Positions 24,964 to 59,697 of a stretch of DNA of 64,000 nucleotides are shown here, in pieces (the stretch's first letter is position 1; every line of letters starts with the position of its first letter). Made by a program: the position numbers and the translations under genes. The DNA is from Candidatus Kaiserbacteria bacterium (GTDB lineage: Bacteria > Patescibacteriota > Minisyncoccia > Phycocordibacterales > UBA2100). The DNA is taken from NCBI GenBank assembly GCA_963767115.1, contig CAVYCR010000001.1, positions 66,430 to 130,429 of the forward strand, read 5' to 3'. The notes under the pieces were generated by a model. That model had not been told where the DNA came from, ran no database searches, and saw only the letters and a program-made list of their open reading frames with translations.

Positions 24964-25247
24964 GGCAAACGTGCAGGGGAAGCATCTTTTCGAACATACC
25001 GTAAGTACAAAGCTTCTGGTATCTCCCACGAACATACCCTGTGGTAATGAGGCTCCTGCAGGCGAGGTTCGAAAAGGTGCTTCCCCTGCACGTTTGCCGA
25101 TTGCAGATGTTGTGGCACCCCAGAGGGAAATGGGTTGCGGAACATCGCCTGTGGAATCGTAGTACCTTATAAGTACGTTCGTGGGAGGAATACAGTCTCC
25201 GTGCACTCACGGTAGGTTCCGCGACCCATTTCCCTCTGGGGTGCCAC
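24964..25247. repeat. Head-to-head pair of hairpin modules (copy pair A): two 32-bp stems, each enclosing a conserved ~71-nt core
   Basis: 24964-24995 pairs with 25067-25098 and 25112-25143 pairs with 25216-25247. Each stem is 32 bp with a single T/G (G-U on the plus strand) position. The loops are 71 and 72 nt. Loop 2 resembles the reverse complement of loop 1. The cores are homologous to those at 44625-44896. Confidence 0.85.
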
Positions 25248-25261
25248 CCCAACAAACAAAC

Positions 25262-25289
25262 TTGAAAATCAGGATTTTACTGCTATAGT
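25262..25289 (+). promoter_or_regulatory. Sigma-70-like promoter of rpmH (TTGAAA-16 nt-TATAGT) ending 6 nt before the ATG (leaderless-type arrangement)
   Basis: TTGAAA at 25262-25267, TATAGT at 25284-25289, rpmH ATG at 25296. Confidence 0.5.
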
Positions 25290-25295
25290 GCGCCC

Positions 25296-26537: not shown

Positions 26538-26695
26538 GCAGAGGCGTCTTATGCCTTTTGCGAACTGAACGCGATTGCATACGCACCGACTCTCAAAAAA
26601 CATCGAGGCTAAGCCTCGATTTTTTTCTACTGCCGGTACTGTGCCTGGGATGATTTCGCTGCGCGAGGTTCGCAAAAGGCATAAGACGCCTCTGC
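26538..26695. repeat. Long inverted repeat (28-bp perfect stem, 102-nt interior) spanning the yidC-jag spacer
   Basis: 26538-26565 (gcagaggcgtcttatgccttttgcgaac) is the exact reverse complement of 26668-26695. The inner arm end (ttttgcgaac / gttcgcaaaa) is the same as in the hairpin at 44627-44752. Confidence 0.85.
26595..26627 (+). terminator. Rho-independent (bidirectional-type) terminator after yidC
   Basis: aaaaaac ATCGAGGC taa GCCTCGAT ttttttt: an 8-bp stem flanked by an A-run and a T-run. It lies inside the 26538-26695 inverted repeat. Confidence 0.7.
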
Positions 26696-27261: not shown

Positions 27262-27744
27262 TTAACACTGAGAGCCGGTCGCCGTCGTAGTGAAGCTGTT
27301 CAAGACCGCGTTGAGGTTGAGGATGCACGGGTTGATCTGATAGAGGACCAGCCAGATCGAGAGCAGGATGACGAGCCCAATAGTCGCATCCGATATGATC
27401 TCGCGCGCTTTTCCCTTGCTCGAGACTATGTCGCTGCCCATATACAGGAATCCTCCATACACGATGCGTACGACTGCTGCTATGGCACCCAAGCTGATGC
27501 AGGTCTCGAAGATCGCGTTGAGGTATCCTGAAAGGGAGTTGCCTTGAAATATATTGCTGAATTGAGTCGCGTTGCCGTAGTTGGCGAGCGGTACGAAGGT
27601 GGGTGTAGTGGGCGTGCTATATGACGGGCCATAGGATGAGCCTGCACCTCCGTTGTCAGCATGTGCCGCGCAGACAAGTGTAAATACAACAAGCAGGCAT
27701 ATGATGCTGGTGAATGAAAACCTGCGAACGAGAGTACCTTTCAT
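27262..27744 (-). CDS. Type IV secretion pilin-like protein (VirB2/TrbC-like topology), last gene of the T4SS-like cluster
   Basis: Signal/TM segment SIICLLVVFTLVCAAHA, then two C-terminal hydrophobic helices (ISLGAIAAVVRIVYGGFLYM and TIGLVILLSIWLVLYQI). Size is 160 aa. The assignment rests on topology and context only. Confidence 0.45.
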   Translation of the reverse strand: MKGTLVRRFSFTSIICLLVVFTLVCAAHADNGGAGSSYGPSYSTPTTPTFVPLANYGNATQFSNIFQGNSLSGYLNAIFETCISLGAIAAVVRIVYGGFLYMGSDIVSSKGKAREIISDATIGLVILLSIWLVLYQINPCILNLNAVLNSFTTTATGSQC

Positions 27745-27748
27745 ATCT

Positions 27749-28985: not shown

Positions 28986-28989
28986 ATGA

Positions 28990-30078
28990 TTAGAGACCGC
29001 TGTTGAACAAGTTGCCCGAATCAGGCTTCGCGCTCTCCGTCGAGCCGCTCCCGGAACTGCCCGAACCTACCGAGCCAAAGGTGAAATTCCACGAGCTCTT
29101 CGCGTCGAGGAAGATGTTGGTCGCATGGGTGACCTCAAGCGCGAGCTGTGCTTGCCCCGAAGAGTTTGCCGCATTGATCGTGATCTCACTCGGATCCTGT
29201 GCGCTCGCCTTGACTGGTGAGTCGTTGATAGTCCACGCGTAGGTGAGATTGGAATCGTTCGGGCTCTGAGCTTGTGCGAAATACGGCACCGCGGCGAAGG
29301 TAGTCTGGCTTCCAGGGATCGACGCACTCGATGCGAAACCGTTGTAGTACGTGATACCAAAAAGCGGATGGTCTTGATACAGCACGATCTGCGGGTTTGC
29401 TGCAGGTACTAAAAGCGATGCACTGCCGGTATAATCGCCGTCTTGCGACTCGGTGTCGATTTCTACCACCGTGCTCCCATCGAGCGGAGGCGCCGGCAGA
29501 AGCACAGACGATCTGCCGAGACCCGAGAGATTTCCCAAGACCACGTCATTTTCTTTCCAGGTGTAGTTGATTTGCGAAGATGGAACGAGCGTACCGTCAG
29601 CTCGCTTGAAATACACGATTGCTTGCACGCGGATAGGGGTGCCAGCTGAGGGCAGTGCACGACCCTTATAAAAAGGCGGTACATACGTGTTGCTGTCCAT
29701 AAGGAGGTCGACCTCTGTCGGTGAGATGGTCGATTGTGCTTGTACCTGCGTGCCATCAAGCGCCGTGACAGAGGCGACAATATTCATGTGCGATCCAAGC
29801 GGCCCTGCCGTCACATTGGTGCTTGTCATACCGGTGCCTTGTGCTATCGTCGTGCCGTTTGATCGCCAAACGACCGTACTGTCTGAAAGGTCGACCGACG
29901 TGTCCTGTAGTGTAAGAGAAACAGTATCGCCGGGCGCGGGGTTTTGCGGTGAGGCCGTGATTGATGCATTTTCATTCTGCCCGGAGAGATTGAGTATAGA
30001 AAAGTTGGTCTGCGCGAAAGCAGTCGAAACACTCATGAGCGCCATGAGAAGAGCGAGAGTACTCGCCAACGATTTCAT
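28990..30078 (-). CDS. Secreted hypothetical protein (362 aa) of the T4SS-like cluster
   Basis: Signal peptide MKSLASTLALLMALMSVSTAFAQ. Beta-rich, Ig-like composition with a Gly/Ser tail. Confidence 0.7.
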   Translation of the reverse strand: MKSLASTLALLMALMSVSTAFAQTNFSILNLSGQNENASITASPQNPAPGDTVSLTLQDTSVDLSDSTVVWRSNGTTIAQGTGMTSTNVTAGPLGSHMNIVASVTALDGTQVQAQSTISPTEVDLLMDSNTYVPPFYKGRALPSAGTPIRVQAIVYFKRADGTLVPSSQINYTWKENDVVLGNLSGLGRSSVLLPAPPLDGSTVVEIDTESQDGDYTGSASLLVPAANPQIVLYQDHPLFGITYYNGFASSASIPGSQTTFAAVPYFAQAQSPNDSNLTYAWTINDSPVKASAQDPSEITINAANSSGQAQLALEVTHATNIFLDAKSSWNFTFGSVGSGSSGSGSTESAKPDSGNLFNSGL

Positions 30079-30106
30079 ACACCCATTATACCGTCTCTTT
30101 GGAGGG

Positions 30107-30436
30107 TTATTTGTCTTGTTGACTCGCTTCGAAGGATAAGCGGTTTTCTCGGATCATCTTATACACAAAATAGCTCCAACCCGGGAATAATTCGGATACA
30201 GGAAAGAATTTAAAAAGTACGGTAGTTATGAACCTGCCCGGTGCTTTTCGCGCAATACTTACGCCGAGATGGCTGAACCAAATGGCTATAATAAAGCCAA
30301 CGATAGGATCTAAGAGTGAGTCAATTATCCAGCCCAAGCCGAGTACAAATCCTAGTATGAAGCTAAGGAGGTCAGCCACGCCGGCAAATACTCTAAGCAT
30401 CGTCGCACTCCCCGCACTGATTTTACCCTCGTTCAT
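30107..30436 (-). CDS. Small integral membrane protein (109 aa, about 3 TM segments)
   Basis: Hydrophobic segments LRVFAGVADLLSFILGFVLGLGWII and IVGFIIAIWFSHLGV. Its ATG overlaps the stop of the VirB4-like gene (ATGA). Confidence 0.6.
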   Translation of the reverse strand: MNEGKISAGSATMLRVFAGVADLLSFILGFVLGLGWIIDSLLDPIVGFIIAIWFSHLGVSIARKAPGRFITTVLFKFFPVSELFPGWSYFVYKMIRENRLSFEASQQDK

Positions 30437-33112
30437 GCGTTGCCTTGAAGTGCGTTGCTGTTAAGGCCTCCGCCGACGGGTGCAGTATCGGCGCCGGGAG
30501 CTGCAAAGGCCGCGGCCGGTGCAGCGGCAGCCGGTATCGGCGCCGGCCGTTCAGGAGGTGCGAGCTCAGCCGAGGCGATCTCCCCTTCCGGCCCGCCTTC
30601 GTTGACCGCGGCGAGTTCCTGCTTCGCCTTTTTGATCGCAAGGATCTGCGACGGGTCGGAGGTGATGATCTGGTCTTCGGTGTACGAGGCGATGACCTTG
30701 ATGCGCGACGTGCTTCAAGCCCGCGAAGAAGATCCCCTCCCCTACATCGGATTCGAGCAGCAGATATTTTTCCTCGTCGGAGAGTTTGAAGGTCTGCTGC
30801 ACGAGGTCGACCGAGGTCGGCGATTGGCGCAAAAGAGTTGAATCGACGAGTTGGTGATCATCGGGATGCCGTAGGGCGAGTTGAGGAAGTCGGAGACGTC
30901 CTGCGTGATCGTCGAGATGCCGAGGTAGTATTTGCGGCCGCGCTTCGCGATACCGAAGAGGAACGAAGCCGTGTCTTCGGAGCGCATCATCCACCACGCC
31001 TCGTCGATGACGAGCAGGCGCTTGCGCAACTCTTTGCGCACGGGTTCCAGATGTGGTGCGTGATGATGTACATCGCGACCGGCTTGAGGTCGTCTTCCAT
31101 GTCGCGCACCGAGAAGACGACGAGCTTTTTGTTCATGTCGACGTTGGTCGGCCGGTTCATAAAGCCGCGACCACGTGCCTTTGGTGTATTTGCTCAGAGA
31201 CGCTGCACGAGCGATCTCGCTCCCTTCCATGCCGGAGAGCACGAGCTCGAAGTCGGAGAGAAGCGGCGGCTCGACTGAGCGCGAAGTTGGCGTCCGCGCG
31301 TGATGTCTTTGAGCGCGTATGTCTCGGTGATCGCACGGTCGATGATCGCGTCTTCTTCCGGCGTGAGGCCGCCGAGCATGATGCGGAAGAGGCCGACGAG
31401 CGTGATGATGTTGTTGCGCAAGACGTCCGAGGGCGCTTCGTCTTCGCGCGGGATCGGCAAGGTCGAAGGGATTGATGTGGTGCTCGGAGCGAAAGTGAAA
31501 TGTTGAAATAGCGGCCGCCGACCGTTTCGGCGAGATATTCGTATTCGCGTTCAGGGTCGATGACGATGACCTCGGTGTCGAACATGAGGGAGCGCAAGAT
31601 TTCGAGCTTGGTCGTGTAGCGATTTGCCCGCACCGGATTTGGCGAAAGTCACGGAGTTGTAGTTTTCGAGGCTAGAAGCTGATCAAAGAGGATCAGCGAC
31701 GAGTTGTGGCGGTTGATGCCGTAGAGGATGCCACGGTCGGAGGTGAGGTCGAAAGAGATGAACGGGAAGATCGAGGAGAGCGGCGCGGAATTGAGCTTGG
31801 TGTGCACGTCGAGCTCGTCGGTGCCGAGCGGCAGGACCGAGCGGAAGCCTTGTTCTTGTTGGAAAAGTGCCGGGCGGATGTAGACGAGACGGCTTTCGAG
31901 AATGCCGCGGATCTCGGTCTCGATCTTGTCGATCTCTTCGCGCGTAGTTGCCGTAGATCGTGAGGTAGAGGCCCACTTCGAAGATGCGCTCCTGCGCCTG
32001 TTGCAAGGAGTCGCGCAACTGCTCGAGGTCGCGAGTAGGCGGTGTCGAGCATCGGGTCGCGCACCATCCCCTTCTCTTCGCGCGTCGAGATCTGCGACTG
32101 CACCTCGGCGACTTTCTTCTGGAATTTGCGGAGCATCTCGTTGGTGTCCATCGGATGGATGAAGATCGAGATGTCGATCACTTTGTCCATGTTGATGATC
32201 GGCGCGAACCACCCCGTCGTGAGGAAGCGCGGATACGAGATGACGAAGAACGTGCGCGCGATCTTTCTCGCCCAGGTCGAGCTCGCGGGAATCGATCTTG
32301 AGCGCGTGCGGCGCGATCACGTCCTGCAGGTCGAGGACGCCGGTCTGGTAGATCTCCTCCGGCAGAACCGGCAACTCATGTTGAGGCTTTTCGGTCGGAT
32401 CTTTTCTTCTGAAGTAAGTAGTCGAGTAGTGCCATACGTTATTAGTTATTGCTTCAAGCGGCATCGGCTTGCCTTCTTCGCCCGGGTTGAACATCTTGTA
32501 GAGAAGCTCGATCGCTTCTTCGGTGCCGAGCTGTACGGTGCGCACGCCCGTGCGCACGAGGCCTTGCTGCACGATCGAGATGCGCTGTTCAAGCTGGGAG
32601 ACTTGCTCTTCGAAAGTCTTGTTGGCGTTCGTTCGGCTCGGTCTTCTTGTTGCCGAACGGCAGCATTTTGCCGACGCCGCTCTTGCTGATGCGAGACTGA
32701 AGCGAATACGGCACGACGACGAAGAAATTCTTGGTCATGATGTTGGCGGCCTCGGTGAAGCTCTTGATGAACTCGATGTATTCGCGGATCTGCACGCGCA
32801 TGAGGTCGTCGAGCTGCTCCTTGTATTGCGCTTCGAGCGTCGCGATATACGGGCGGATGTCGAGCATGCGCGATTGCACGAAGATCTGACACGGAGAAAT
32901 CAAGCGAGTTGAGGAAATTCTGGAATTGCACGATGAAGGCGGTCTGCTCGTCCTCGCTCTTGAGTGCGAAGTTGATCGATGAGGCGAGGAGGATCGCGCG
33001 CAGGCTGCCGTCTTTGAGGATGACGACGCCGTCACGCACTTCGCGAGACCGGCACGAATTCCTGCGTGGAGCGGCTGTTGGATCGTGGTGTTGATGGACG
33101 TTGGGTAGGCAT
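30433..33112 (-). pseudogene. virB4: VirB4/TraC/PrgJ-type type IV secretion ATPase, reading frame broken at a dozen or more points as sequenced
   Basis: Homologous text hops through minus-strand ORFs 32446..33039, 32589..33035, 31649..32572, 31693..32190, 31683..32018, 31157..31633, 31194..31460, 30742..31242 and 30566..30997. It includes VRDGVVILKDGSLRAILLASSINFALKSEDEQ, Walker A FAKSGAGKS (read by hand at about 31640), EVIVIDPEREYEYL, Walker B LLVIDEAWWMM and RKYYLGISTITQDVSDF. ATG at 33112, TGA at 30433-30435. Confidence 0.85.
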
Positions 33113-33118
33113 AGATGG

Positions 33119-33614
33119 TTAGCGCACGAGCGCGTCGCGCGCGGTCCTGATGGGCTTCATGGCGTCATAGGCGAGCGCGGTCGCTCTCGTCAGCGGAGCC
33201 CGCGGCAATGCGCTCCTTGATGTCGAGACTCCAAGCGAGGTCATGCAGACGGCTCTCTGAGAGACTTCGGGATGTAGAGATCAGGTTGCTCGAGAGTCTG
33301 TGCAGTCACAACCGACTTTTTCTCCGTCGGGTTTGCGCTCGTTGTTCCACAAGTAGAGCCGTGGTTGGAGGACGAAGTAGAAACCGTTCTCAAGCGCGAG
33401 AATGAACGGCCGGCCGTTGTACTCAAAGAAAGCGAGCGCTGCTGCGAAGGCCTACGACGATCATGATGAGCGGTACTGCGACGAAGAGCGGGAGGATGCG
33501 CCACAAGACATAAGACAAGCCACCACCGCCGCCGATCTAGATGAATTGTCTGAAGGTGAGCGGGCCGAAAATCTTGTCCTCGACCTCGATGAATTGAGGA
33601 ACTTGGAACTGCAT
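33119..33614 (-). pseudogene. PrgI-family (VirB3-like) small membrane protein, with one in-frame TAG and several frameshifts as sequenced
   Basis: Hand translation from the ATG at 33614 gives MQFQVPQFIEVEDKIFGPLTFRQFI*IGGGGGLSYVLWRILPLFVAVPLIMIVVGL, then AAALAFFEYNGRPFILALENGFYFVLQPRLYLWNNERKP in the next frame, and so on. The N-terminal VPQFI-x-EDKI-GPLT-RQF signature is typical of PrgI-like proteins encoded just upstream of VirB4 in Gram-positive-type systems. TATACT lies 8 nt upstream of the ATG. Confidence 0.6.
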
Positions 33615-33675
33615 CACTCAATAGTATACCAGTACTGCGTGTATATTCCCCTCTCTGTGCGTGCATAGAGAAGTC

Positions 33676-34311
33676 TCAGGCGATTTGTTCTCGATACGGA
33701 TCGCCTTCGATCGTCTTGCGTTCATGGCTTGCCGCCGATGAAGCATACGAAGGAGCGATAGAGGCGCGTGTGGCTTTGTCTTCGGGCGGTTGTGGCAACG
33801 GAGCAAGAGGTTGTGGCGGTAGTGCCGGAGGGGCAGCTGCGATAGGTGTAGGAGTCACGGCAGGTACCAGTGTCGCTGTCTCCTGAGTCTGATTCTGCTC
33901 GGATTCTTGCGCGAGTGTCTGTGTGCGTGCCGCCTCGACAGTGGATTCTTCAACAGCCTTCGCCTCCGGATGCTCCAGCTGCCGCTCAAGCTCCTCGCGA
34001 ATCGGGTCAAAGACGATTTGCATGATGCTCTCTGTGAGGGGTACAGCAACCTCTGGTGAGAGCCCAACATGGCGCTCTATGTTTTCGGTAAGATTCTCAG
34101 CGTTCTGAACACCGAGAAGTGTGAGCATGACTTCGTTTTCCAAAGCACCCCACTGATCAAGATGTAGATGATTCTTGTCACAAAGCTCACGCATGTGTTT
34201 TTCGACATCAGCTGACATAATCGCGTTCTGCACTACTTTAGGCAGAAGCTTGAATCGTTCAAACAGCTCTTTGCTCAAGTCCAACTGTTCGTGGGTGTCG
34301 CTTTGCGGCAT
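33676..34311 (-). CDS. Hypothetical protein (211 aa), helical N-terminal domain plus Pro/Ala-rich tail
   Basis: Intact ORF within the cluster with no recognisable motif. Confidence 0.6.
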   Translation of the reverse strand: MPQSDTHEQLDLSKELFERFKLLPKVVQNAIMSADVEKHMRELCDKNHLHLDQWGALENEVMLTLLGVQNAENLTENIERHVGLSPEVAVPLTESIMQIVFDPIREELERQLEHPEAKAVEESTVEAARTQTLAQESEQNQTQETATLVPAVTPTPIAAAPPALPPQPLAPLPQPPEDKATRASIAPSYASSAASHERKTIEGDPYREQIA

Positions 34312-34316
34312 AAAAT

Positions 34317-37043
34317 TTAGGTTGTTTTCTTATCCTCCTCATCTCTTTCTTTGACGTAATCCTTCATGATATCTGCAGCTGTCTTACCCCCCATTTTTTT
34401 GCTCTTCAACGTATCCCTTCTAGCGTTGTCGGCCAAGGCGTTGTTGTCGCCGGTGACACTGCCAACTACACGCTCTGAAATAGTGCCGCTCCGACGTGCT
34501 ATTTCACCAGCAACATTGGCAGCACCTTCCTTCACTTCAGCTTCTGCACGATTGCCAGCCTCCTTAGCTTTTACTTTGGTCTCCGCTTCATATTCATCGA
34601 GTGCACTCTGTTCTTTTGTGGTATATAACATCGTATTCTGCGCGATTTGAGAGTTGGTCGATTGAATTATCTTGTCGGCTTCGGTCACCTGTGCGCGTCG
34701 AGTCTTAATTTCACTGTCGACTGCCGTGAGTTTAGTGCGGATATCTTTCATTTTTGGATCGCTCTCCTCCATTTGTGCAGCTTCCAAGCGTGCCTTATCA
34801 ATGCGCTCTGCCTCATGGCGCATCTCGCTTCTACGATTCTCCTCAGTCTTGCTTATGTCGTTTTGTATATCTTTTCGTTTCGTTGGGTCAGTTTCGACAG
34901 CAAGTTTCTGTTGCATACCCTTTATATTTTGTTCATGACTTTCTTGCTTATTTTTACTGTCTTTTTGGAGATCATCCACTTCTGTTTGCTTGTGTGCGTA
35001 ATCAGGGTTAGACTCGCGGGCCGTATTCAATTCTTTGATAATGGTCTCCCTCTCCGTGCTCTTGGCGGCGATACTCTTTTCGATCTCAGCGCGCTCCGTC
35101 GTTTTCTGAAGCACTTGAGCCTTGAGCGGAATTGATGACTGTTCTGCCGACTCCCTCGCCTTCTTGAGATTGTCTTTCAGCTCGACTGTTCTTGTCTCAC
35201 GATCAGTCCGCACTCTCTCCTCTGCACTCTTGCGTACCTTAGATATGTCGTCTCTACTCGGTGTTATCTTATCGATATTGTCTTTAGTGCTGGCCTTACG
35301 CTTTGCCACTGCATCATCAAACGACTTACCTGCGGTCTTTGCGCGTTGTGTAACATAACCGTTAGACTGCCGTGTAGCCAAACGTGCAAGCCGATTGGAC
35401 TCGTCTTGTTTTTGTTTAGCCTCCGCATGCTCGCCTTTATTTGAGTGTATGTCCGCTTCAAGCTTGAGCCTGCCGGATTCGTTGCGATTCCTTTCGGCTT
35501 CCTTGGTTCGGGAGTTTGCAAAACCGGAAGCCAACCTGCTCACTGTATTGCGATACGCAAACGAACCGACTGTACTGGTCGCACCCTTCAATGAACTCGG
35601 CAGTGCGTTGACGGTCAGGGCGCCGCCAGCTGAAGCGACTGAGTTTGAGATCTTGAAAGAAATGAAGAGAAACCCTATGCCAACGAGATACAAGATGATC
35701 GTTGCCCAGCCTGAAGTGGTAACGATCTGACTCGGGTCGCTTATCAAGGTACCCATGCTAGTGCCGCCGCTGCCGATGCCGCCTGCTGCTGAGCCGGCGT
35801 TGAGTATCAGCATCGTGATCCAAAGGAATATCATCAGGAGCGGACCGAAGATCGAGACGTTGATGAGCGCGCTCAACCACGTGCTGAAGCCATACTTGCC
35901 GCCCGAGAGCTTGGGGTGGAGATAGGTCGTAAGGGCGATCGAGGAGGTAAACATCAAGAACAGGATAATGAAGAAACGCTCTGCAAGGAGAAAACATCCA
36001 TAGCCCAGGACCAGCGCAAGTGCTATGAGTAGAAAGCCGCCGACTATGCCGAACATAAGTGTCTGCAGGCCGATCGAATACGCGCTGGCAGAACTTGCGG
36101 TCTGCCCGCTTGTTACATTTGTAGAGACCTGCTGTATCTGAGTAAAATTTGAGACAGCTTTCCCGGAATCGAAAATACTCTTCATACCCATCTTGTCCAA
36201 GAAGCCGCTTGTTATGTCGAGGACACCTCCCGCCGTCGTATCGCTTCCTAGGCCTTGTTGTGCCGCTATCTGACTGTAGAACTGATAGGCGGCGTCGTTC
36301 GAGAAGTCAACGACCATCTTAGTGAAAAGAAGGCTGAAGTTGATGAAAATGGCGACGATGAGCACGTTGGCGATCAGTTTCTTCTGGCCGTATTCCTTGA
36401 GACCGAGGATAATGTTGATCGCGATGAACGTAAACATCCCGATGATGACGATGTTGGCGAGGTTGCGGAAGAGCGTCCAGCCGGAGGTTATGGCGGTTGC
36501 AAGCCCGGAGTCCGAAAGCGTCTTACCGAAATTCACCACAAAATACCATATCAGGTAGTCAAAAACGAATCCCACGGTGCGCAAAATGCTTGCGCCAATG
36601 AAGAGAAAGACTGTCGCGATCCCCTGCATTGCAGGAATCCAGATACAATCTGTAAAAGTCCACGTCCCCCATATGAAACTACAGGATTTATCGACAGGTA
36701 CATTATTCTTATCGAGCGTTACTGTGCCACCAATTGAAGAAGTTGTTTGGCCGGCAGGGTTACCACTCGCATCGTAGAACTGATCTAAGTTTGAGCCGGT
36801 CCCGTCACCGTTGGGTATTTGTACTTCACATGCGTAGGCGACGTTTTGTAGTTTTGTTGATGAAAAAATCGATGGGTTTGAAGCAGGTGTTTCAAGAGTC
36901 TGTCCGCTTGGACATGAAGGAGTCGTATCGGCATATGCGACCGGAGTATCGCCAAAAAAGGTCGGAAAAACAAAAAATAGAACAAAACTCAACAGGAATG
37001 AGAAAACCAGACCTTTTTTATTGAAGTTTATTATGTGCTCCAT
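34317..37043 (-). CDS. Large polytopic membrane protein (VirB6/TrbL-like candidate) with a ~400-aa Lys/Glu/Arg-rich C-terminal tail
   Basis: ORF 34317..37088. The likely start is the ATG at 37043 (MEHIINFNKKGLVFSFLLSFVLFFVF...). It has six or more hydrophobic helices (for example IVIIGMFTFIAINIILGL, LIANVLIVAIFINFSLLF, WLSALINVSIFGPLLMIFLWITMLIL). The C-terminal third is highly charged and coiled-coil-like. Confidence 0.5.
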   Translation of the reverse strand: MEHIINFNKKGLVFSFLLSFVLFFVFPTFFGDTPVAYADTTPSCPSGQTLETPASNPSIFSSTKLQNVAYACEVQIPNGDGTGSNLDQFYDASGNPAGQTTSSIGGTVTLDKNNVPVDKSCSFIWGTWTFTDCIWIPAMQGIATVFLFIGASILRTVGFVFDYLIWYFVVNFGKTLSDSGLATAITSGWTLFRNLANIVIIGMFTFIAINIILGLKEYGQKKLIANVLIVAIFINFSLLFTKMVVDFSNDAAYQFYSQIAAQQGLGSDTTAGGVLDITSGFLDKMGMKSIFDSGKAVSNFTQIQQVSTNVTSGQTASSASAYSIGLQTLMFGIVGGFLLIALALVLGYGCFLLAERFFIILFLMFTSSIALTTYLHPKLSGGKYGFSTWLSALINVSIFGPLLMIFLWITMLILNAGSAAGGIGSGGTSMGTLISDPSQIVTTSGWATIILYLVGIGFLFISFKISNSVASAGGALTVNALPSSLKGATSTVGSFAYRNTVSRLASGFANSRTKEAERNRNESGRLKLEADIHSNKGEHAEAKQKQDESNRLARLATRQSNGYVTQRAKTAGKSFDDAVAKRKASTKDNIDKITPSRDDISKVRKSAEERVRTDRETRTVELKDNLKKARESAEQSSIPLKAQVLQKTTERAEIEKSIAAKSTERETIIKELNTARESNPDYAHKQTEVDDLQKDSKNKQESHEQNIKGMQQKLAVETDPTKRKDIQNDISKTEENRRSEMRHEAERIDKARLEAAQMEESDPKMKDIRTKLTAVDSEIKTRRAQVTEADKIIQSTNSQIAQNTMLYTTKEQSALDEYEAETKVKAKEAGNRAEAEVKEGAANVAGEIARRSGTISERVVGSVTGDNNALADNARRDTLKSKKMGGKTAADIMKDYVKERDEEDKKTT

Positions 37044-38764
37044 ATTTGTTCCCACATCTGGAGGGTGGAAGGATTGCCTACGTTGCACCAGCCGGAATTG
37101 GGGTCGGCGGGGTTCCCCGTGTCGGGACTGGTCGTGGTCCAGTTGCTCTGTACTGTCTGCACGAGGTTGGTGCTCGTTTGTTGGATGGTCGTCTGGGCTT
37201 GCTGTATGGAGACCAAGTCGTTGGGTGTCTGCAACTGACCAGTGGAGGTGAGCTGGTCAACATTATCGACGGCCTGGTTTTGCGTATCGACTGAGCTGCT
37301 CTGCGCGTTGTTCTGGATTTGTGTGAGTGTCTGGATGTTTTGCTGCGCAACATTGATCTCTTGGAGAGTCGAAGATGCCGTCGCAGCGATGTTGGTATTG
37401 ATGATTTGCTGCGCGAAGCCGTAGGTCGAGGTCGCGATCGTGAGTGTTACGGTAGACGGGGCTGTCGTCACGGTTTGCGATATCGTTCCGCCGTGGCCGT
37501 TTGAGGTAACAACCGTACTGATGCTCGCAGTACCCGTTTGTACTTCGGTGCATGTTGCGGTCCCGTTACTGTTGTAGCTCAAGGTCCCGGCTTGGCAGAC
37601 GTCTGAAATGATACTGTTCCAACAGCCTGCCTCTTGCCCACGAAGGGTGCCGATCGCGGTTGAAAGGGTATTGGCGATGGAGCTTGCTGTCTGATAATAG
37701 CTTTGTTCGGTCTGAATCGCGCCCGAGAGGATGGAGAGCGCGGCGCCCGCGATGCCTTGCGTGACGCCGGTGTTGGCGAGCGATGTAGCGCTTTGCATGT
37801 ATCCCTGCGAGACACTGGCAAGGCTTTGGTTGGTATATCCCGGCACTGAGGCACCGGTCACTGCGGAAGAGAGGTTGGCCAAGAGCGAAGTCGTCATCTG
37901 ACCGATGTCGTTGGCGTTTTCGGTGAGGCGGAAGCCCGAGGTAATGGCTTGGTTGAGCGTTGCAAAAAGTGTCTGGCTCGGCGTGCTTACGATGATATTA
38001 CCGTACGCGTCGGTACTGCCGCGCGGGTACATACCCTGGCCCCATTGCAGCTGTGTGAGTGCGTTGTTGACGACGTTGGCGGCCACAGCCGTCGCTTGGG
38101 CGTTGGCTTGGTTGTAGGCACCTATCGCGGTGCAGGTCGGGAGCGCGAGATAGCCGAGCGCTGAGAGCGCGGAGTCGGTCGTCTGCCCTTGATAGAGTGC
38201 GGTGAGGTTGCCTGTGTAGGGACATGAGAGTGCAGCAGTCGGGCTGTTGATCGCGGCGTAATTGTTTTGCACGATTGCGGATTTTACGGTGCTTTGGAAT
38301 GCGGCATTCACGTTGTTGGTAATACCATTGCTCACCGCTGCGGCGAGTGCGTTCGAATATTTAGTCTGCATCTCGTTTCCTAGGTTGACGGAATACTGCG
38401 GATTGCCGTTATTGCCCTGTGTGATCTGTCCGGTGATCTGGTTGGTCATCTGGGTAATGGCGCTGTCGCGCAGGCGGTCGATCACTTCGCGCAAGACGCA
38501 CTCGTCGTAAACGAGATATCCGGTGTTGAGCTCTACCACCGCGTCCGACACGGGTACGTACACTCCGTTTGCAGTGAAGGCGCCGACGCTCTTGGCGTAG
38601 GCACCGTTCTGGCTGCAGCCGAGGATGCCGGAGTCTTGGAATTGGTACGCGCTGTTGCCTACGGGCGACTGCACGGCACCAGGAAGGCTGCTCGCTTGCG
38701 CAAAAACGAGCACTGGTGAGAGTGTGATGAGTAGAATACTGAGGAGTAAGGTACGGATTTTCAT
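37031..38764 (-). CDS. Secreted hypothetical protein (577 aa), Gln/Thr/Asn/Ser/Ala-rich
   Basis: Signal peptide MKIRTLLLSILLITLSPVLVFAQ. It has a 4-nt overlap with the upstream gene and a 13-nt overlap with the downstream start. Confidence 0.7.
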   Translation of the reverse strand: MKIRTLLLSILLITLSPVLVFAQASSLPGAVQSPVGNSAYQFQDSGILGCSQNGAYAKSVGAFTANGVYVPVSDAVVELNTGYLVYDECVLREVIDRLRDSAITQMTNQITGQITQGNNGNPQYSVNLGNEMQTKYSNALAAAVSNGITNNVNAAFQSTVKSAIVQNNYAAINSPTAALSCPYTGNLTALYQGQTTDSALSALGYLALPTCTAIGAYNQANAQATAVAANVVNNALTQLQWGQGMYPRGSTDAYGNIIVSTPSQTLFATLNQAITSGFRLTENANDIGQMTTSLLANLSSAVTGASVPGYTNQSLASVSQGYMQSATSLANTGVTQGIAGAALSILSGAIQTEQSYYQTASSIANTLSTAIGTLRGQEAGCWNSIISDVCQAGTLSYNSNGTATCTEVQTGTASISTVVTSNGHGGTISQTVTTAPSTVTLTIATSTYGFAQQIINTNIAATASSTLQEINVAQQNIQTLTQIQNNAQSSSVDTQNQAVDNVDQLTSTGQLQTPNDLVSIQQAQTTIQQTSTNLVQTVQSNWTTTSPDTGNPADPNSGWCNVGNPSTLQMWEQIWST

Positions 38765-39570
38765 GATGTCTTGGTGGCGAAGTAGCCGTACAGGTTCTGG
38801 AACGAATTGACCATGTCTTGCTGAGCTTGGTCGTAGTTTTCGAGAAGCACGGTCTCGGTGAAGGAATCGCTGCCATGGTTCGACATCTGGTCCAAGACCG
38901 TCGCGAACTCCTGCATCGCATCGAGTATACCGATCTGGTACGTGACGGCGTCTTCTGGCACGACGAGCTTCGCCGTCTGTGCGGCAGCGAGCTGGTAGTT
39001 GTCGGCGGCCTGTGTGAGATCCTCGAGGTATTGTGGATCATTGGTAGACTCGTATTCGTTGAAGATGTCCAGCTCAGACTGGGTGTTGTTCATGAGCGGC
39101 TTGAGCGAAGTCTGTAGATCGGTGCGATATTGCATGGCGCGCTCGGGAGATGTGTCGGTATCGGTCGGGATCTGTGAGCTTGTGTAGGTCGGTGCAGAGA
39201 TGTCGGCGTGGATGTTTTGTGCCAGCCCGGCGACGACCGCGGTGGCGCTGGAGGTACTATAGGTCCCCTGCGATTGCATATAGGCATAATCAGCCGCGAT
39301 GGTGTCGGCGACGTTGCTTGAGAGTTGTGCGGGATCATATGGGTCCCCTTCGCTCGCTGCCGCGCTTGCGCTCTGTGCTGTGTCAGAGTCGTTGCCCGGA
39401 ATGCCGCTGTGCACTTGGGCAGCTCCCGCAACCACCTGCAGCAGCGTGTCTTTGTTGTTGAGGTATCCCCACGCTTGCAGGCCGATGACACCGACGAGCG
39501 CCACTATGGAGAGCACGGCCGTTGCCTGCATACCAGAAAAAGCGCCGACGTGTGTATCTCGGTTTTCCAC
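38761..39570 (-). CDS. N-terminally anchored hypothetical protein (269 aa)
   Basis: GTG start 6 nt after TATACT. TM segment AVLSIVALVGVIGLQAW. The helical ectodomain has the same architecture as the next gene upstream. Confidence 0.65.
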   Translation of the reverse strand: MENRDTHVGAFSGMQATAVLSIVALVGVIGLQAWGYLNNKDTLLQVVAGAAQVHSGIPGNDSDTAQSASAAASEGDPYDPAQLSSNVADTIAADYAYMQSQGTYSTSSATAVVAGLAQNIHADISAPTYTSSQIPTDTDTSPERAMQYRTDLQTSLKPLMNNTQSELDIFNEYESTNDPQYLEDLTQAADNYQLAAAQTAKLVVPEDAVTYQIGILDAMQEFATVLDQMSNHGSDSFTETVLLENYDQAQQDMVNSFQNLYGYFATKTS

Positions 39571-42695: not shown

Positions 42696-44600
42696 TCAGT
42701 CGAGCAATCCTCCGCGCGGCATGGTATTGCTCTCACGGGAGACGACGTGCATCAGGCGCTGGTCGATGTCCTCGAGGAACTCTGACGGCACGGTAAAGTC
42801 GCGCGAGCCGTACTTCATGCGCGAAGAAGCATAGGTGAGATAGAGGAATTTGCGGGCGCGCGTGATCGCTACATAGAAGAGCCGGCGCTCTTCCTCGCTG
42901 TCGCGCGTGGAATCATCGGCGCGAATCGACGGGAAGAGGCCCTGCTCGAGGCCTGTGACGAAGACCGCGTCAAATTCAAGTCCTTTGGATGCGTGTACCG
43001 TCATGAGCGAGACCTCGGCGCGTTTCTCCTCGAGCTCGTCCTGGTCGCTCTGGAGCGCCGCTTCTTCGAGGAGACGCTCGATACCCTCTGGCGGCGTCGC
43101 GTCGTCGTAGCGCACAGCGAGGTTCACGAGCTCGTAGATGTTGGCAAGACGCTCCCGGCTCTCGTCGGTGTTTTCTTCCTTGAGCATTCGCTCGATGCCA
43201 CTTTCTTCGACGCAGTACCGTACTGCTTCTGACGCTGCGACAGTGTCGATCGCTGTGCGGATCTTCACGAGTGTCTCGCGCAAGCTTTTGATCTTTGTCT
43301 TGGCGGCAGCAGGCAGTGCGTCTTCTTGTCCGGCGAGGACTTTATCGAGCGTGACCTTGCCGATGCCGCGCGGCGGGACGGAGACGATGCGCGAGAGGTC
43401 GTTGCCCCCGTCAGGGTTCATCGCGGCGCGCAGGTACGAGAGCACATCCTTGATCTCCTTGCGCTCGAAGAAACGCGTGCCGAGTACGCGGTACGGGACG
43501 CCGAAGCTCAGCATCGCTTCCTCGAGCGCGCGCGATTGGAAGTTTTCACGATACAGGACAGCGATCTCGCTGGGGTCGGTGCCGTTTTTGAGCTGTTCTC
43601 CGATCATGCCGGCGACGAACCACGCCTCATCGACCTCGTTGATGCCGCCATAGACCACGACTGGCTCGCCCGTGTCGTTGTCGGTGAAGAGATTTTTAGC
43701 ATGGCGGCGGGTGTTTTTGCCGATCACACTGTTGGCTGCGGCGAGGATGGTGCGCGTCGAGCGGTAGTTTTGCTCAAGCAAGACGACCTTCGCTCCGGGG
43801 AATGCCTTCTCGAAACCGAGCAAGTGCTCGATGTCGGCGCCGCGCCAGCTATAAATGTTTTGATCCGTATCGCCGACGACACAGATGTTCATACGAGTCC
43901 CCGCAAGAAGTCGTGCGATCTCGTATTGCGCGTGGTTGGTGTCTTGGTATTCGTCGATGATGATGTGGCTCCAACGATTTTGTAGAAGCGAAAGTACACG
44001 CGGGCTCTGCCGCAGAAGTGCGAGTGTCCGGAAGAGTAGATCGTCGAAATCGAGAGCCGACTCTTGTTTGAGGCGCGCTTCGTACAAGCGCCATGCCTTC
44101 GCGACCGTTTCATCGCGGAAGGAATGCGTCTCGTGCGCGAATTCATCCGCCGAGATACCATCACCCTTCTGTCGAGATATCGCTGAGAGGATCTGGCGCG
44201 GCGTCCATTGCTCTACGTCGAGCTCTTCGAGGATCCGCTTGATCGCGCGTGTCGAGTCGTCGCGGTCCCAGATAGAGAAGCCGCGCGGCAAAGATGCTTC
44301 CGTATGGAATTCGCGCAAAAGTCGGACTCCCAGACTGTGGAAGGTCGAGACAAAAGGAGCGCCATGTGACCCTTGAGGCAGGAGCACGCGCACGCGCTCG
44401 CGCATCTCGCCCGCGGCTTTGTTGGTAAAGGTCACGGCAAGAATTGCCGACGGACGTACGCCGCTCCTGATGAGCTCAGCGATGCGGTACGTGATCGTCT
44501 TGGTCTTGCCCGCTCCGGCGCCCGCAACGATCAAAAGCGGCCCTTCGAGATGGAGGGCCGCTTCTTTTTGTTGCTCGTTGAGGTCTTTGAGGTGGTCCAC
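42696..44600 (-). CDS. pcrA: ATP-dependent DNA helicase PcrA/UvrD (superfamily 1)
   Basis: ORF 42696..45044. Motifs AGAGAGKTKTITYRIA, IIIDEYQDTN, LEQNYRST, VHASKGLEFDAVF and LFYVAITRARK. The start is set to the in-frame GTG at 44600 (VDHLKDLNEQQKEAAL...), 7 nt after TATATT. The upstream 148 codons cover the hairpin repeat and look non-coding. Confidence 0.9.
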   Translation of the reverse strand: MDHLKDLNEQQKEAALHLEGPLLIVAGAGAGKTKTITYRIAELIRSGVRPSAILAVTFTNKAAGEMRERVRVLLPQGSHGAPFVSTFHSLGVRLLREFHTEASLPRGFSIWDRDDSTRAIKRILEELDVEQWTPRQILSAISRQKGDGISADEFAHETHSFRDETVAKAWRLYEARLKQESALDFDDLLFRTLALLRQSPRVLSLLQNRWSHIIIDEYQDTNHAQYEIARLLAGTRMNICVVGDTDQNIYSWRGADIEHLLGFEKAFPGAKVVLLEQNYRSTRTILAAANSVIGKNTRRHAKNLFTDNDTGEPVVVYGGINEVDEAWFVAGMIGEQLKNGTDPSEIAVLYRENFQSRALEEAMLSFGVPYRVLGTRFFERKEIKDVLSYLRAAMNPDGGNDLSRIVSVPPRGIGKVTLDKVLAGQEDALPAAAKTKIKSLRETLVKIRTAIDTVAASEAVRYCVEESGIERMLKEENTDESRERLANIYELVNLAVRYDDATPPEGIERLLEEAALQSDQDELEEKRAEVSLMTVHASKGLEFDAVFVTGLEQGLFPSIRADDSTRDSEEERRLFYVAITRARKFLYLTYASSRMKYGSRDFTVPSEFLEDIDQRLMHVVSRESNTMPRGGLLD

Positions 44601-44624
44601 GAAAGAGAATATACCATAATGAGT

Positions 44625-44896
44625 GAACGGCCGAGCGGAAAAGGTTTTGCGAACATACCGTGAGTGCAAAGCCTCTGACATCTCCCACGAACGTACTCTG
44701 TGGTACTCCGATCCTGCAGGCGATGTTCGCAAAACCTTTTCCGCTCGGCCGTCCAGCATCGCGTGCCCGAACCCTGAGCCGACAGTCTTTTGGAACATCG
44801 CCTGCGGAATTGCGTCACCTATAGAGTACGTTCGTGGGAGATATACGACCATTTGCAAGTACGGTGCGTTCCAAAAGACTGTCGGCTCAGGGTTCG
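44625..44896. repeat. Head-to-head pair of hairpin modules (copy pair B): 28-30-bp and 29-bp stems, each enclosing a conserved ~71-nt core
   Basis: 44627-44654 pairs perfectly with 44725-44752 (loop 44655-44724). 44768-44796 pairs perfectly with 44868-44896 (loop 44797-44867). The loops are homologous to those at 24996-25066 and 25144-25215. The outer arm sequences are unrelated to those of copy pair A. Confidence 0.85.
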
Positions 44897-45212
44897 CGCG
44901 CCCCAATTTGACAAAACCCCTATCCACTCGCCAAGTCTGAGAAGTATTGCCCCACAAGGTCGATGAGGGTAGAGTGAACCCTAACGACGGCATACCCGAA
45001 ATCAGACGCTCGGTGCTTCCTGAGAAAGCAAGCAATAGAGCCATGAAATCCAGATGCCCTGAAAGCCCGTCGTCAAAAATTGGCTTTAAATCTCGATAAA
45101 ATACGAAAAGCGGCTAGCGCCTCTTTTTTGTGTTGTTGGGACTAAAATGCCGATTAAATGGCTTATTTTAAGTAAAAAACACGATTCTCGTCCGAGCTCC
45201 GGCTCACGCGGG

Positions 45213-49291: not shown

Positions 49292-50135
49292 TCAAAGTGG
49301 TTTTTGTGCTGAGACTATCGCATACATGCCCGGACCATTGAAAATAAAATCGCGTTGTACAATCCCCGCACGCAAATTATCTACGAGTAATTGCGGCACA
49401 AGATGCACCATTGATAAGAGAGAATGAAGCCATTGCCAGCGTTTCATAAGCTCGTACATCTCTTCCGAGCTCCTCATTACATTTTTTGTTTTGTCGAGTG
49501 TTTCTACATCTTTGAAACCAACTCGTTCTGCGTCTTGTTTGAATAGATCGATGTGAGCAAGGTTATCTAATGCAAGCCCTTTCAAGAATTCACTGTAAAC
49601 TCTCTCCTCCGCTGGACCGTTTGGGTTTCGTCTCAAGAAACCGTCAATTACGACGATTCGGCCGCCCGGTTTGAGGATCCGATACGCTTCCTTCAGGAAA
49701 TCAGCTTTGTCTTTCGCATGGCAAATACTCTCGACTCCGAAGACGACATCGAACGAATTGTCCTCGAAGGAAGTGTGCAGAAAATCCATCACGAGAAACT
49801 TCGTCTTTCCTTGAAGGTTCATTTCGCGCGCATATTCCTGCGCCTTCGCGCATTGCTTGGTTGAAATGGTAATGCCGCTTACATGCGCCCCCTTATTGAG
49901 CGCAAGCCAGAGCGCCGACCCCCCCCACGCCGCAACCTGCGTCCAATACTTTGGAATCAGATTGTATGTTTCCGGTCTCGGCTACAATCTTGTTGGTATT
50001 GATAAGCGCTTCTTGAAGTGTCTTGGTGTCTGCATCCCAAAGTCCGTAATGGAGCGCCTTGGTGCCCTTATGCCAAAACAATCTGTAAAAGGGAATCGTA
50101 TAGTCGTAATAACGCGCTACCTCTTCGTTGGTCAT
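49292..50135 (-). pseudogene. SAM-dependent methyltransferase split by a +1 frameshift in a G8 (plus-strand C8) homopolymer
   Basis: ORF 49893..50135 ends ...LDAGCGVGGVGALACAQ*. Removing one G from the run at 49919-49926 gives ...GCGVGGSALWLALNKGAHVSGITISTKQCAKAQEYAREMNLQGKTKF, which continues into ORF 49292..49822 (FDVVFGVESICH, LKPGGRIVVID). Confidence 0.75.
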
Positions 50136-57293: not shown

Positions 57294-57444
57294 TAGCTTG
57301 TAGCTATCAGCTTGATAGCTTGTAGTAATAAATATAAAAATGCTTTATAAAATCTCGCTGCTTACTATTCTACGCACAATATTCGAAATTAGAAAATGCG
57401 AGTCGCATTCTCCTACAAGCTACCAGCTATCAAGCTAAAAGCTA
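57294..57444. repeat. AGCT-rich palindromic spacer motif (copy 2)
   Basis: tagcttgtagctatcagcttgatagcttgtag (57294-57325), then an 87-nt AT-rich spacer containing aaaatgc, then ctacaagctaccagctatcaagctaaaagcta (57413-57444). The right arm overlaps the rpsO stop codon. Confidence 0.7.
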
Positions 57445-57708
57445 CTTCTTGAGCCCGAGTTTCTTGACGAGTACGCCGTAGGCACGCTTGTCTGTCTCTT
57501 CGAGATACTTCATGTGCTTTCGGCGATCAGCTACCAAACCAAGCAGTCCGCGGCGCGAATGCTTGTCTTTGTGATTTTTGGTCAAATGAGCGGAAAGCTC
57601 CTCGATACGACGGGTCAAAACGGAGATTTGTACCTCAGGAGAGCCTGTATCGGTCTCATGGCGGCGCACCTTCGAGATTTCATTCAATTTCTTACGCTTC
57701 GTAAGCAT
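57442..57708 (-). CDS. rpsO: 30S ribosomal protein S15
   Basis: ORF 57442..57732. Start at the internal ATG at 57708 (MLTKRKKLNEI...), giving 88 aa. Conserved GSPEVQISVLTRRIEELSAHL and HSRRGLLGLVADRRKHMKYL. Confidence 0.92.
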   Translation of the reverse strand: MLTKRKKLNEISKVRRHETDTGSPEVQISVLTRRIEELSAHLTKNHKDKHSRRGLLGLVADRRKHMKYLEETDKRAYGVLVKKLGLKK

Positions 57709-57761: not shown

Positions 57762-58331
57762 TTATTTGGCGCTCGTTCCGGAAGTGGTGGTCGTGGTGGA
57801 AGGTGTCGACGAGCCTGCGCTTACATTCACGAGCTTCACATCGAAGATGATGGTCGAGCCGGCCGGGATAATGACCTTACCTGTCGAATCCTTCACGTCC
57901 TGATTGCCGTAGCCGAGGGATGGTGGGATTGCCATGAGGCGCTCCCCGCCGACTTTCATGCCATTAACGCCAATCTGGAAGCCCTGGATAAGGCTCTGGG
58001 AGCCGAGCTGGAAGACCAACGGCTGGTTGCCATGTGCCGCGGAGCTGTCGAAGATCGTGCTGGTAGAGATGGTGCCGACATAACCGACATAAAGTACGGC
58101 TACGTTGTCGCCGGGCTGTGCTTGTGTGCCGGTGCCGACAGTGACGTCCTGTGCCTGGACCTGCTGGGCGGCAGTACTGCTCGCAGCAGCCGCTGCGGCC
58201 GCCGACTGCGAAGTTGTCGTTGCCGTACCGCTTGCCTGAGAAGACGAATTGGAACTCTGAACGATAAAGTAAACCCCTGCTGCCAAAATAATAATGACAA
58301 TAATGCCAATGACTATGTTTCTAGTATTCAT
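57762..58331 (-). CDS. Membrane-anchored FKBP-type peptidyl-prolyl cis-trans isomerase
   Basis: ORF 57762..58532. Start at the internal ATG at 58331 (MNTRNIVIGIIVIIILAAGVYFIV). FKBP core VLYVGYVG...IFDSS...PLVFQLGSQSLIQGFQIGVNGMKVGGERLMAIPPSLGYG. Confidence 0.88.
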   Translation of the reverse strand: MNTRNIVIGIIVIIILAAGVYFIVQSSNSSSQASGTATTTSQSAAAAAAASSTAAQQVQAQDVTVGTGTQAQPGDNVAVLYVGYVGTISTSTIFDSSAAHGNQPLVFQLGSQSLIQGFQIGVNGMKVGGERLMAIPPSLGYGNQDVKDSTGKVIIPAGSTIIFDVKLVNVSAGSSTPSTTTTTSGTSAK

Positions 58332-58378
58332 CAAGCAAGCATACCTCTCTTTACCCAAAAAGCGCAAGGTTTCGGGGG

Positions 58379-58387
58379 TGTGGATAA
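58379..58387. promoter_or_regulatory. Second perfect DnaA-box 9-mer (tgtggataa)
   Basis: Read directly. It ends 13 nt before the long inverted repeat arm starting at 58401, the same spacing as at 24942-24950 / 24964. Confidence 0.4.
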
Positions 58388-58400
58388 TGTGGTAAAAAAT

Positions 58401-58518
58401 GAGGCGAACCCTGCGCACAGCGTGTTTTGGGGTCTTTGCAGCGCGGTGGCGCGAAACAGAGTTATTTTCTAGCAAGAAAATAACGACCCCAAAACACGCT
58501 GTGCGCAGGGTTCGCCTC
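58401..58518. repeat. Long inverted repeat (34-bp perfect stem, 50-nt interior) immediately upstream of the rarA -10 box
   Basis: 58401-58434 (gaggcgaaccctgcgcacagcgtgttttggggtc) is the exact reverse complement of 58485-58518. The arm resembles that at 44768-44796 (shared cgaaccctg...ttttgg). The interior contains its own 9-bp hairpin (gttattttc/gaaaataac). Confidence 0.85.
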
Positions 58519-58535
58519 GAGCGTATACTCACCGT

Positions 58536-59697
58536 ATGGAACCCCTTGCTTCACAGATAAGACCCAAAACACTCGACGAATTCGTAGGGCAGGAGCATAT
58601 TACCGGGCCCGGCAAGCCCCTGCGGGTCGCGATCGAGAAGAAAGAGCTCTTCTCATTTATGTTGTGGGGACCGCCCGGCTCCGGCAAGACGACGCTCGCC
58701 CGCATCTATGCCAATGCAGTCGGTGCGGATTTCCATGAGCTCTCCGCGGTCGAAGCCGGCAAGGACGACATTAGGAAGAGTCATAGGCGACTCGCGGCAG
58801 CTTGCTCTCACAGCAAGCCGAAAGTACTTTTCGTCGACGAGATCCACCGTTTCAACAAAGCACAGCAGGATTTCTTCCTGCCGTTCGTCGAGCGCGGCGA
58901 CATCACGCTCATGGGCGCCACGACCGAAAATCCGAGCTTCGAGGTCATCGCTCCCCTGCTTTCTCGCTGCCGCGTCTTCGTGCTTGAACGAGCACAGCGA
59001 AGCTGACATGGAGAAGATCATCGATCGTTTGCAGAAGATGGCCAAGATAGAGTAGCGAAGGCTGCGTGCGAATGGCTCGTGCGGATGGCGCAGGGCGACG
59101 CCCGCCAAGCGATCACCACGCTCGAGACCGCGCAGAAGCTTTACGGCAAGATCACCGTCGATACGCTCAAGGAAGCGATCCAATCGAAGTATCTCCGTTA
59201 CGACAAGAAGGGCGAGGAGCACTACAATATCATCAGTGCATTCATCAAAAGCATGCGCGCCTCGCAGCCGGATGCAGCGCTCTATTATCTCGCGCGGATG
59301 GTCGAGAGCCGGCGAAGACCCCGTCTTCATCGCGCGCCGCATGGTGGTCTTCGCGTCGGAAGACATTGGCCTCGCGACGCCGACTGCGCTCGTCGTGGCG
59401 AACGCCGTCTTCGAGGCAGTGCAATCGATCGGCTATCCAGAATGCGCGATCAATCTCAGCCACGGTGTCGCCTATCTTGCTATGTGCAAGAAGAGTCGTG
59501 CTTCGCACGACGCCTACTTTGAAGCACTCGATGATGTGAAAAAGTACGGCACGCTCCTGGTGCCGATGAAGATCAGGAATGCCCCGACCAAGCTCATGAA
59601 AGACATCGGCTATCACGAAGGTTACAAGCTCTACGACAAAGAATCGTACCTGCCGGAGAAGCTGAAGAAGCGGAAGTATTTGAAGGGTGATAAATAA
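58536..59697 (+). pseudogene. rarA: Replication-associated recombination protein A (RarA/MgsA AAA+ ATPase), 3 or more uncompensated frameshifts as sequenced
   Basis: ORFs 58536..59006, 58708..59055, 59079..59522 and 59236..59697 carry successive parts: [89 protein letters not shown] and RNAPTKLMKDIGYHEGYKLYD. TATACT (58524-58529) lies 6 nt before the ATG. Confidence 0.85.

Follow-up and report, generated by a model that had tools for sequence, protein, structure and literature searches.

Paired hairpins between divergent genes

The window, by which we mean the whole 64,000-nucleotide stretch of DNA analysed here, holds two adjacent hairpin-forming inverted repeats, B1 and B2 (44627-44896; together pair B), between the divergent genes pcrA (-) and M23/LysM peptidase (+) (Table 1). 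The homologues of PcrA and DnaA bear the names Candidatus Paceibacterota and Kaiserbacteria, which places the source of the window among the CPR bacteria. B1 consists of a perfect 30-bp stem with a 66-nt loop, and B2 of a perfect 29-bp stem with a 71-nt loop. The original prediction, made from the sequence alone, had described the first hairpin as 28 bp with a 70-nt loop; this architecture was recovered under its definition. As it had also proposed, each loop is an inverted copy of the other, with 76% complementarity over 54 nt, and the two have in common the 9-mer ATCGCCTGC and the 20-mer AGAGTACGTTCGTGGGAGAT. The 20-mer is present exactly at 44680-44699 (-) and 44823-44842 (+) and gave no match in shuffled sequences.

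A paralogous pair, pair A, spans 24964-25247 between the divergent genes dnaA (-) and rpmH (+), adjoining a perfect DnaA box (24942-24950). Its head-to-head design equals that of pair B, as predicted, and it carries the 20-mer with two mismatches (25021-25040). The units follow a common plan, i.e., a core of ~70 nt that forms the loop, a conserved inner stem of 9-10 bp with the consensus TTTTGSGAAC / GTTCSCAAAA, and a copy-specific outer stem of ~18-22 bp. The outer arms are 24-53% identical between copies, which have the inner ~10 bp alone in common. GAAC/GTTC is a recurring motif, found at the inner ends of the stems and in the loop centre. All six units analysed have the same polarity toward the adjacent gene.

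Table 1 Features of pair B, its paralogue and neighbouring elements. Positions are those of the window; for relatives the sequence is given instead.
Feature	Position or sequence	Strand	Remarks
True pcrA coding sequence, 634 aa	42696..44600	-	GTG start 44600
Spurious 148-codon 5' extension of pcrA	44601..45044	-	crosses pair B and the adjoining conserved non-coding element
pcrA extended -10, TGgTATATT	44608..44616	-	7 nt upstream of GTG 44600; leaderless-type
B1 left arm	44627..44656	.	outer ~18 nt copy-specific; inner TTTTGCGAAC(AT) conserved; covariation
B1 loop, type-1 core	44657..44722	+	orientation ACCGT...CTCCCACGAAC...CAGGCGA
B1 right arm	44723..44752	.	perfect complement of left arm
B1-B2 spacer, 15 nt	44753..44767	.	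equivalent spacer 16 nt in L004, 13 nt in pair A
B2 left arm	44768..44796	.	inner part TTTTGGAAC; outer part like hairpin D arm
B2 loop, type-1 core	44797..44867	-	inverted relative to B1
B2 right arm	44868..44896	.	inverted-repeat partner of 44768-44796
A1, paralogous unit, faces dnaA	24964..25098	+	arms 24964-24995 / 25067-25098
A2, paralogous unit, faces rpmH	25112..25247	-	arms 25112-25143 / 25216-25247
Hairpin C	26538..26695	.	inner stem TTTTGCGAAC / GTTCGCAAAA as in B1; unrelated 102-nt loop with bidirectional terminator
Hairpin D	58401..58518	.	34-bp perfect stem, outer part like B2 arm; unrelated 50-nt loop; abuts -10 of rarA-like gene
L001 extended -10 region	TGGTATGAT		6-7 nt before GTG
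L003 and L004 extended -10 region	TGATATATT		6-7 nt before GTG
L011 extended -10 region	TGTTATAGT		6-7 nt before GTG

A loop-core pattern and the covariance model R1 agreed on exactly four type-1 units in the 64 kb; the model revealed no further type-1 copies in the window, its other matches being merely long hairpins. Each unit folded with a z-score of -7.7 to -10.6 relative to shuffled controls, and pair B as a whole gave two independent hairpins with z-scores of -13.3 (DNA) and -12.5 (RNA). The window contains 12 inverted repeats of 14 bp or more within 160 nt, vs none in each of 20 shuffles. Long perfect hairpins with unrelated loops comprise hairpins C and D, those at 5274-5418 and 57300-57445, and one in the relative L006, with stems of 25-34 bp and loops of 50-102 nt. 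The picture is that of a mosaic: B2 and hairpin D share arm sequence and not loops, and hairpin C shares the inner 10 bp only.

An intrinsic terminator was ruled out, as the loops are 66-72 nt long and neither stem is followed by a T-run on either strand. A small peptide encoded in the loop was rejected because there is no conserved start or frame. An SOS (Cheo) box CGAAC..GTTCG split by insertion was dropped, as such boxes are not enriched in the window.

Directly to the right of B2 lies another non-coding element, of ~220 nt (44905-45130, +), which begins at TTGACA (44908-44913), ends with a hairpin and a T-run (~45103-45130) and is located ~80 nt upstream of the real start of the M23/LysM peptidase (ATG 45213). 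It is also found in relatives of this genome (L004, 200-450; L001, ~3700-3960; L011, ~720-960), in which the stem of its terminal hairpin is compensated. About 80 nt of it are 100% identical to L004, vs 61% at synonymous sites. The element gave no Rfam match at E ≤ 10 and is a candidate leader (riboswitch-like RNA) or sRNA. A DnaA-like box, ctatccact, had been assigned to the flank of the module; the sequence is present at 44920-44928 but is part of the ~220-nt element. As that element also occurs in relatives without the module, the box is not a module feature.

The pcrA reading frame and promoter

The ORF at 42696-45044 codes for 782 aa, and the deposited public protein P0001 has the same form. 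In contrast, the ~120 best PcrA homologues are about 620-690 aa long, mostly 630-640, and cover 79-85% of the 782-aa ORF, nearly all of them 79-82%; the extension is found in none. The conserved PcrA N-terminus (V/M-DHLKDLNEQQKEA...) starts at GTG 44600. Used as a query, the 148-aa extension retrieved no protein family, its sole match being a spurious ORF over the conserved flank of L004. We give practically no credence to a genuine N-terminal PcrA extension encoded by 44601-45044: the frame is open from ATG 45044, which the deposited annotation uses, but all other homologues begin at the GTG position, five lineages have the -10 box ahead of the GTG (7 nt in the window), and the 'peptide' would cross inverted repeats. 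In L004, moreover, the frame is closed over the module, with the ORF P0121 stopping at 487, ~250 nt before pcrA. It is near certain that the 148-codon extension is an artefact and that the module is not translated. Both the inflation of pcrA and the non-coding nature of the module had been anticipated.

The deposited 782-aa PcrA is thus mis-annotated, and other ORFs are similarly affected. That of the M23 peptidase is called from ATG 45147 and has its conserved start at ATG 45213 (MKYRKAK...), 45147-45212 being an artefact. Hairpin D inflates the ORF of an FKBP isomerase (57762-58532), and a 127-aa minus-strand ORF that crosses pair A (24872-25255) is an ORF-calling artefact. Long hairpin repeats in these genomes mean systematic ORF inflation as well as broken short-read assemblies. 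Apparent gene fragments elsewhere in the window, i.e., the middle of a T2SSE ATPase (4198-4689), the C-terminal part of a methyltransferase (49292-49822) and a 156-aa N-terminus of the rarA-like gene (58536-59006), may be pseudogenes or assembly frameshift errors. The window also contains a 3217-aa ORF (8266-17919, -) and a block of genes mostly without Pfam matches (27262-39570), which includes a T4SS-pilin-like protein.

The arms of both pairs lie 9-15 nt from core promoter elements, and that of B1 begins 10-13 nt from the TATATT box of pcrA (44613..44608, -). The original prediction placed this arm at the -35 position of the promoter. The arm does lie there, but the promoter has an extended -10, the arrangement of which is identical in the module-less relatives L001 and L011. 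Such an extended -10 (TGnTATAnT), 6-7 nt before the pcrA GTG, is present in five lineages, whether they have the module or not. Judging from its sequence, the promoter is of a leaderless, extended -10 type, independent of a -35 element. The hairpin arm is tolerated at the -35 position because an extended -10 promoter does not depend on -35, and the geometry of the arm alone therefore does not imply regulation. A regulatory role of the module at pcrA is unproven, and we found no support for a possible cellular function at oriC or the divergent promoters. A -10 box 6-7 nt before the start codon, an arrangement that at pcrA is conserved in four relatives, also gives a leaderless look to rpmH (TATAGT before ATG 25296; 25284-25298, +) and to the rarA-like gene (TATACT before ATG 58536; 58524-58538, +).

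Inheritance of the pair and turnover of its stems

Comparison of the pcrA upstream regions of relatives, which had been proposed as a check, showed the hairpin pair in L004, the proximal hairpin in L003 and neither in the more distant L001 and L011. In L001 (PcrA 73% identical) the M23-pcrA synteny is kept and the hairpin is absent, with 39 nt separating the conserved TTGTCAAA motif from the -10 vs ~300 nt in the window. L011 (JGI Ga0181531_10225580) lacks the module and has another insert, of ~480 nt, in the same gap. This insert (roughly 240-690) has at its bounds a 13-bp inverted repeat, GCCACTTATCCAC / GTGGATAAGTGGC, which contains DnaA-box sequences. The pcrA/M23 gap seems to be an insertion hotspot.

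L004 (Logan SRR22808010), the PcrA N-terminus of which is 93.5% identical with 61% identity at fourfold sites, has an orthologous hairpin pair at the same site (arms 451-478 / 547-574 and 591-619 / 691-719), with perfect stems of 28-29 bp and the same unit orientations as in the window. L003 (Logan SRR31245132; PcrA 90% identical) is represented by a contig whose first nucleotides (GTTCGCAAAG...) already belong to the proximal right arm, and the proximal hairpin of this relative has a third stem sequence. The core is thus conserved outside this genome, in L004 and L003, which decides the prediction's own condition for refutation in its favour. The loop-core pattern gave no matches in GTDB species genomes, JGI metagenomes or IMG/VR, and the family is therefore narrow, the relatives' copies being seen only in Logan assemblies. 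From these sequence comparisons it is near certain that pair B is a vertically inherited insertion in a narrow clade. Its entry between the promoters of pcrA and of the M23/LysM-peptidase leader, which lie back to back, would date to an ancestor that the window genome shares with its closest relatives, with vertical inheritance ever since.

At the pair A locus, the contigs of L005, L009 and L010 are cut at or near hairpins, L006 (DnaA 87% identical) has a different hairpin (1902-2008) in the oriC region, and no hairpin was found in L007 and L008. The Logan contigs L003, L005 and L010 (1-30) begin ~30 nt inside apparent hairpin arms, as would be expected if assembly at k=31 breaks at inverted repeats.

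The stems have been turned over without loss of pairing. Relative to L004, both stems of pair B have an essentially new outer part of ~18 bp (35-53% identity over 17-19 positions per arm) that still pairs perfectly. Identity at fourfold sites is 0.58-0.64 by comparison, and that of orthologous loops is 49-69%. An indel in one arm has its mirror image in the other. In the six units, 98.7% of the 156 stem cells are paired and 20 of the 26 pairs have changed on both sides, which none of 500 shuffles and no slid register came close to. Read in one orientation, the three non-Watson-Crick cells are one G·U and two A·C, and read in the other they are the reverse; this split between strands points to a strand-symmetric, DNA-type constraint. 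On these 17-19 positions per arm, the stems appear to evolve at least as fast as neutral sites, which points to simultaneous double changes rather than to selection acting through deleterious single-mismatch intermediates.

The inner stems behaved differently, with 10/10 and 9/10 positions identical between the window and L004, and so did the loop island GGAGTACGTTCGTGGGA, which matches at 17 of 17 positions. Between orthologues, the inner stem and the loop islands exceed neutral sites in conservation, which hints at a constraint on them or at a trans-acting factor that recognises them. The loops are more alike within the genome than between genomes (66-83% identity for paralogues in the window vs 49-69% for orthologues), which suggests exchange between copies within one genome.

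Origin of the perfect stems and known repeat families

We lean, by a modest measure, towards a composite explanation: a lineage-restricted, non-coding MITE/REPIN-like repeat, whose arms would be kept paired by copying at the DNA level and which would be carried as a passive passenger. One arm would be copied from the other, likely by replication template switching (quasipalindrome correction) or intrastrand gene conversion, such that a substitution or indel in one arm is at once matched in the other, and the stem would drift roughly as fast as neutral sequence with Watson-Crick pairing never lost. Loops appear to be homogenised between copies of a genome. We infer arm copying because selection on a 30-bp helix hardly sees one mismatch and should slow evolution. 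The site is most likely a permissive one and the element a selfish or neutral passenger in it, probably devoid of regulatory function; the extended -10, leaderless promoter of pcrA, which should need no upstream sequence, would tolerate the element.

Template switching is documented to create and maintain perfect stems, to homogenise and expand inverted-repeat arms, and to be able to invert spacers (PMC8794818, PMC8604942, PMC13100816). Against the composite explanation, we found no transposase, recombinase or reverse transcriptase among about 40 ORFs of the window and no target-site duplication or flanking direct repeat at any unit or either pair, and the module is present at only two loci in the window. 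The shared polarity of the units and the site of both pairs exactly between divergent promoters would also be expected of a functional upstream module. We know of no demonstration of template switching across a spacer of ~70 nt. An origin of the arms by copying of ancestral flank was rejected, since the similarities CCGCTC..TTCA (B1 arm vs L001) and CCGATGCC (L004 arm vs L011) are not beyond chance.

The conserved junction, TTTTGSGAAC / GTTCSCAAAA, allows a speculative extension, on which we place low confidence: the module may be the substrate of a dedicated hairpin-recognising activity of these CPR bacteria. Candidates are a single-strand Y1/HUH-type transposase or nickase, or a processing nuclease, that reads this junction; it might regenerate one arm from the other, perhaps with a role at divergent promoters or oriC. 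If such an activity exists, the module would define a class of repeats in which the loop is conserved and the stem may take any sequence but must pair perfectly, and a dedicated enzyme or role would make it a repeat of a new kind for the little-studied CPR.

Covariation is routinely treated as proof of functional RNA, and the strong covariation found here, a stable fold on both strands, the conserved islands in the loop and at the stem-loop junction, and the common polarity of the six units toward the adjacent gene are what one would expect if each unit were a structured non-coding RNA, with a long processing stem (e.g., an RNase III substrate) under selection as a helix that releases or presents the ~70-nt core. 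We nevertheless regard this as unlikely. Hardly any G·U pairs occur (1-2 of 156 cells), and the cells that depart from Watson-Crick pairing favour neither strand; stem evolution is no slower than neutral, and selection alone should leave more mismatches in a 30-bp helix that barely feels one. A conserved internal structure of the loop is unsupported, the unit has neither promoter nor terminator (no conserved promoter in the loops, no T-run after the stems), and hairpin C holds its own terminator in the loop, which makes it unlikely that its two arms are on one RNA. Rfam gave no match in the window at gathering thresholds and none at E ≤ 10 over 44560-45160; over pair A there was one sub-threshold match, at 21 bits vs a gathering score of 72. 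Stems wholly turned over between close relatives with Watson-Crick pairing still perfect offer a clean natural case in which selection on RNA structure and DNA-level arm copying can be separated as sources of covariation.

Similarly doubtful is a cis element acting as DNA, either a protein-bound insulator or upstream module for divergent promoters or, as pair A lies in the oriC region, a replication-linked site. Each pair takes up the interval between two divergent promoters, its arms close to the core elements, GAAC/GTTC recurs at the inner stem ends and loop centre, and DnaA boxes are found near both pairs. However, module-less relatives with ~73-75% PcrA identity keep the same promoters, and relatives whose DnaA is 87% identical have no pair A in the oriC region, or a different hairpin instead. 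A protein site needs no copy-specific, perfectly complementary flanks of 20 bp, a GAAC-N4-GTTC operator is not enriched in the window, and cruciform extrusion over a 70-bp spacer is physically unfavourable. The stems could also be recombination sites of invertible switches, the two loop orientations representing ON and OFF states. A short segment between perfect inverted repeats and the presence of both orientations in the genome fit this, but we consider it very improbable, given that every unit is oriented alike in the window and L004, that the loops contain no promoter and that no recombinase gene lies nearby; to our knowledge, known invertases need more than 66-72 bp between their sites for synapsis. 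Finally, a variable part of 18-24 nt beside a conserved scaffold, differing between close relatives, is reminiscent of acquired 'guide- or spacer-like' outer stems matching some target. This too seems most unlikely: no arm has a second match in the window with up to 4 mismatches, four arms have no exact match in IMG/VR, no effector gene is present in the window, and the arms of L003 and L004 can be derived from each other by point changes, i.e., by drift and not replacement.

The composite explanation places the module close to several known families without assigning it to one. Like REPINs, which form a long hairpin with compensatory changes (PMC3116915), the units are non-coding, intergenic, ~100-130 nt long, made of two inverted conserved segments that form a long hairpin, vertically persistent, and closer within a genome than between genomes. 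In REPINs, however, the REP sequences are conserved at the stem ends and the middle varies, whereas here the loop and inner stem are conserved and the stem ends are copy-specific. Also unlike in REPINs, no GTAG/CGTC-type tag was seen and only 4 units are present in 64 kb; no RAYT (Y1_Tnp) match was found among the scanned ORFs of the window. With bacterial MITEs (Correia/NEMIS, ERIC, RUP) the module has in common a size of ~125-135 bp, long terminal inverted repeats forming a hairpin, a promoter-adjacent location, the lack of coding capacity, and inflated or altered calls of neighbouring ORFs. But MITE terminal repeats are family-wide, while here the innermost 10 bp alone are in common; MITEs are flanked by target-site duplications, of which there are none here; and the arms of old MITEs decay independently, whereas these stay perfectly paired. 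The window contains no cognate autonomous IS or transposase. Integron attC sites are likewise hairpins defined by structure, with stems that vary between copies. They keep the outer R''/R' boxes and vary the hairpin top, the reverse of the situation here, with GAAC/GTTC at the inner ends, and they occur in direct arrays beside intI instead of in inverted pairs in a window with no integrase. In the strict sense, the module is neither a REPIN nor a MITE, and it is no attC site.

Quasipalindrome or template-switch mutagenesis (Ripley; Lovett; Mönttinen & Löytynoja 2022) is a mutational process and not a family of elements. It explains the perfect stems, two-sided changes, mirrored indels, arm expansion and spacer inversion (PMC8794818, PMC8604942, PMC13100816). 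Documented cases have short spacers, unlike the 66-72 nt found here. The element fits no known family and represents a variant of the palindromic intergenic repeat theme in which conservation is inverted, the loop being conserved and the stem free to change but perfect.
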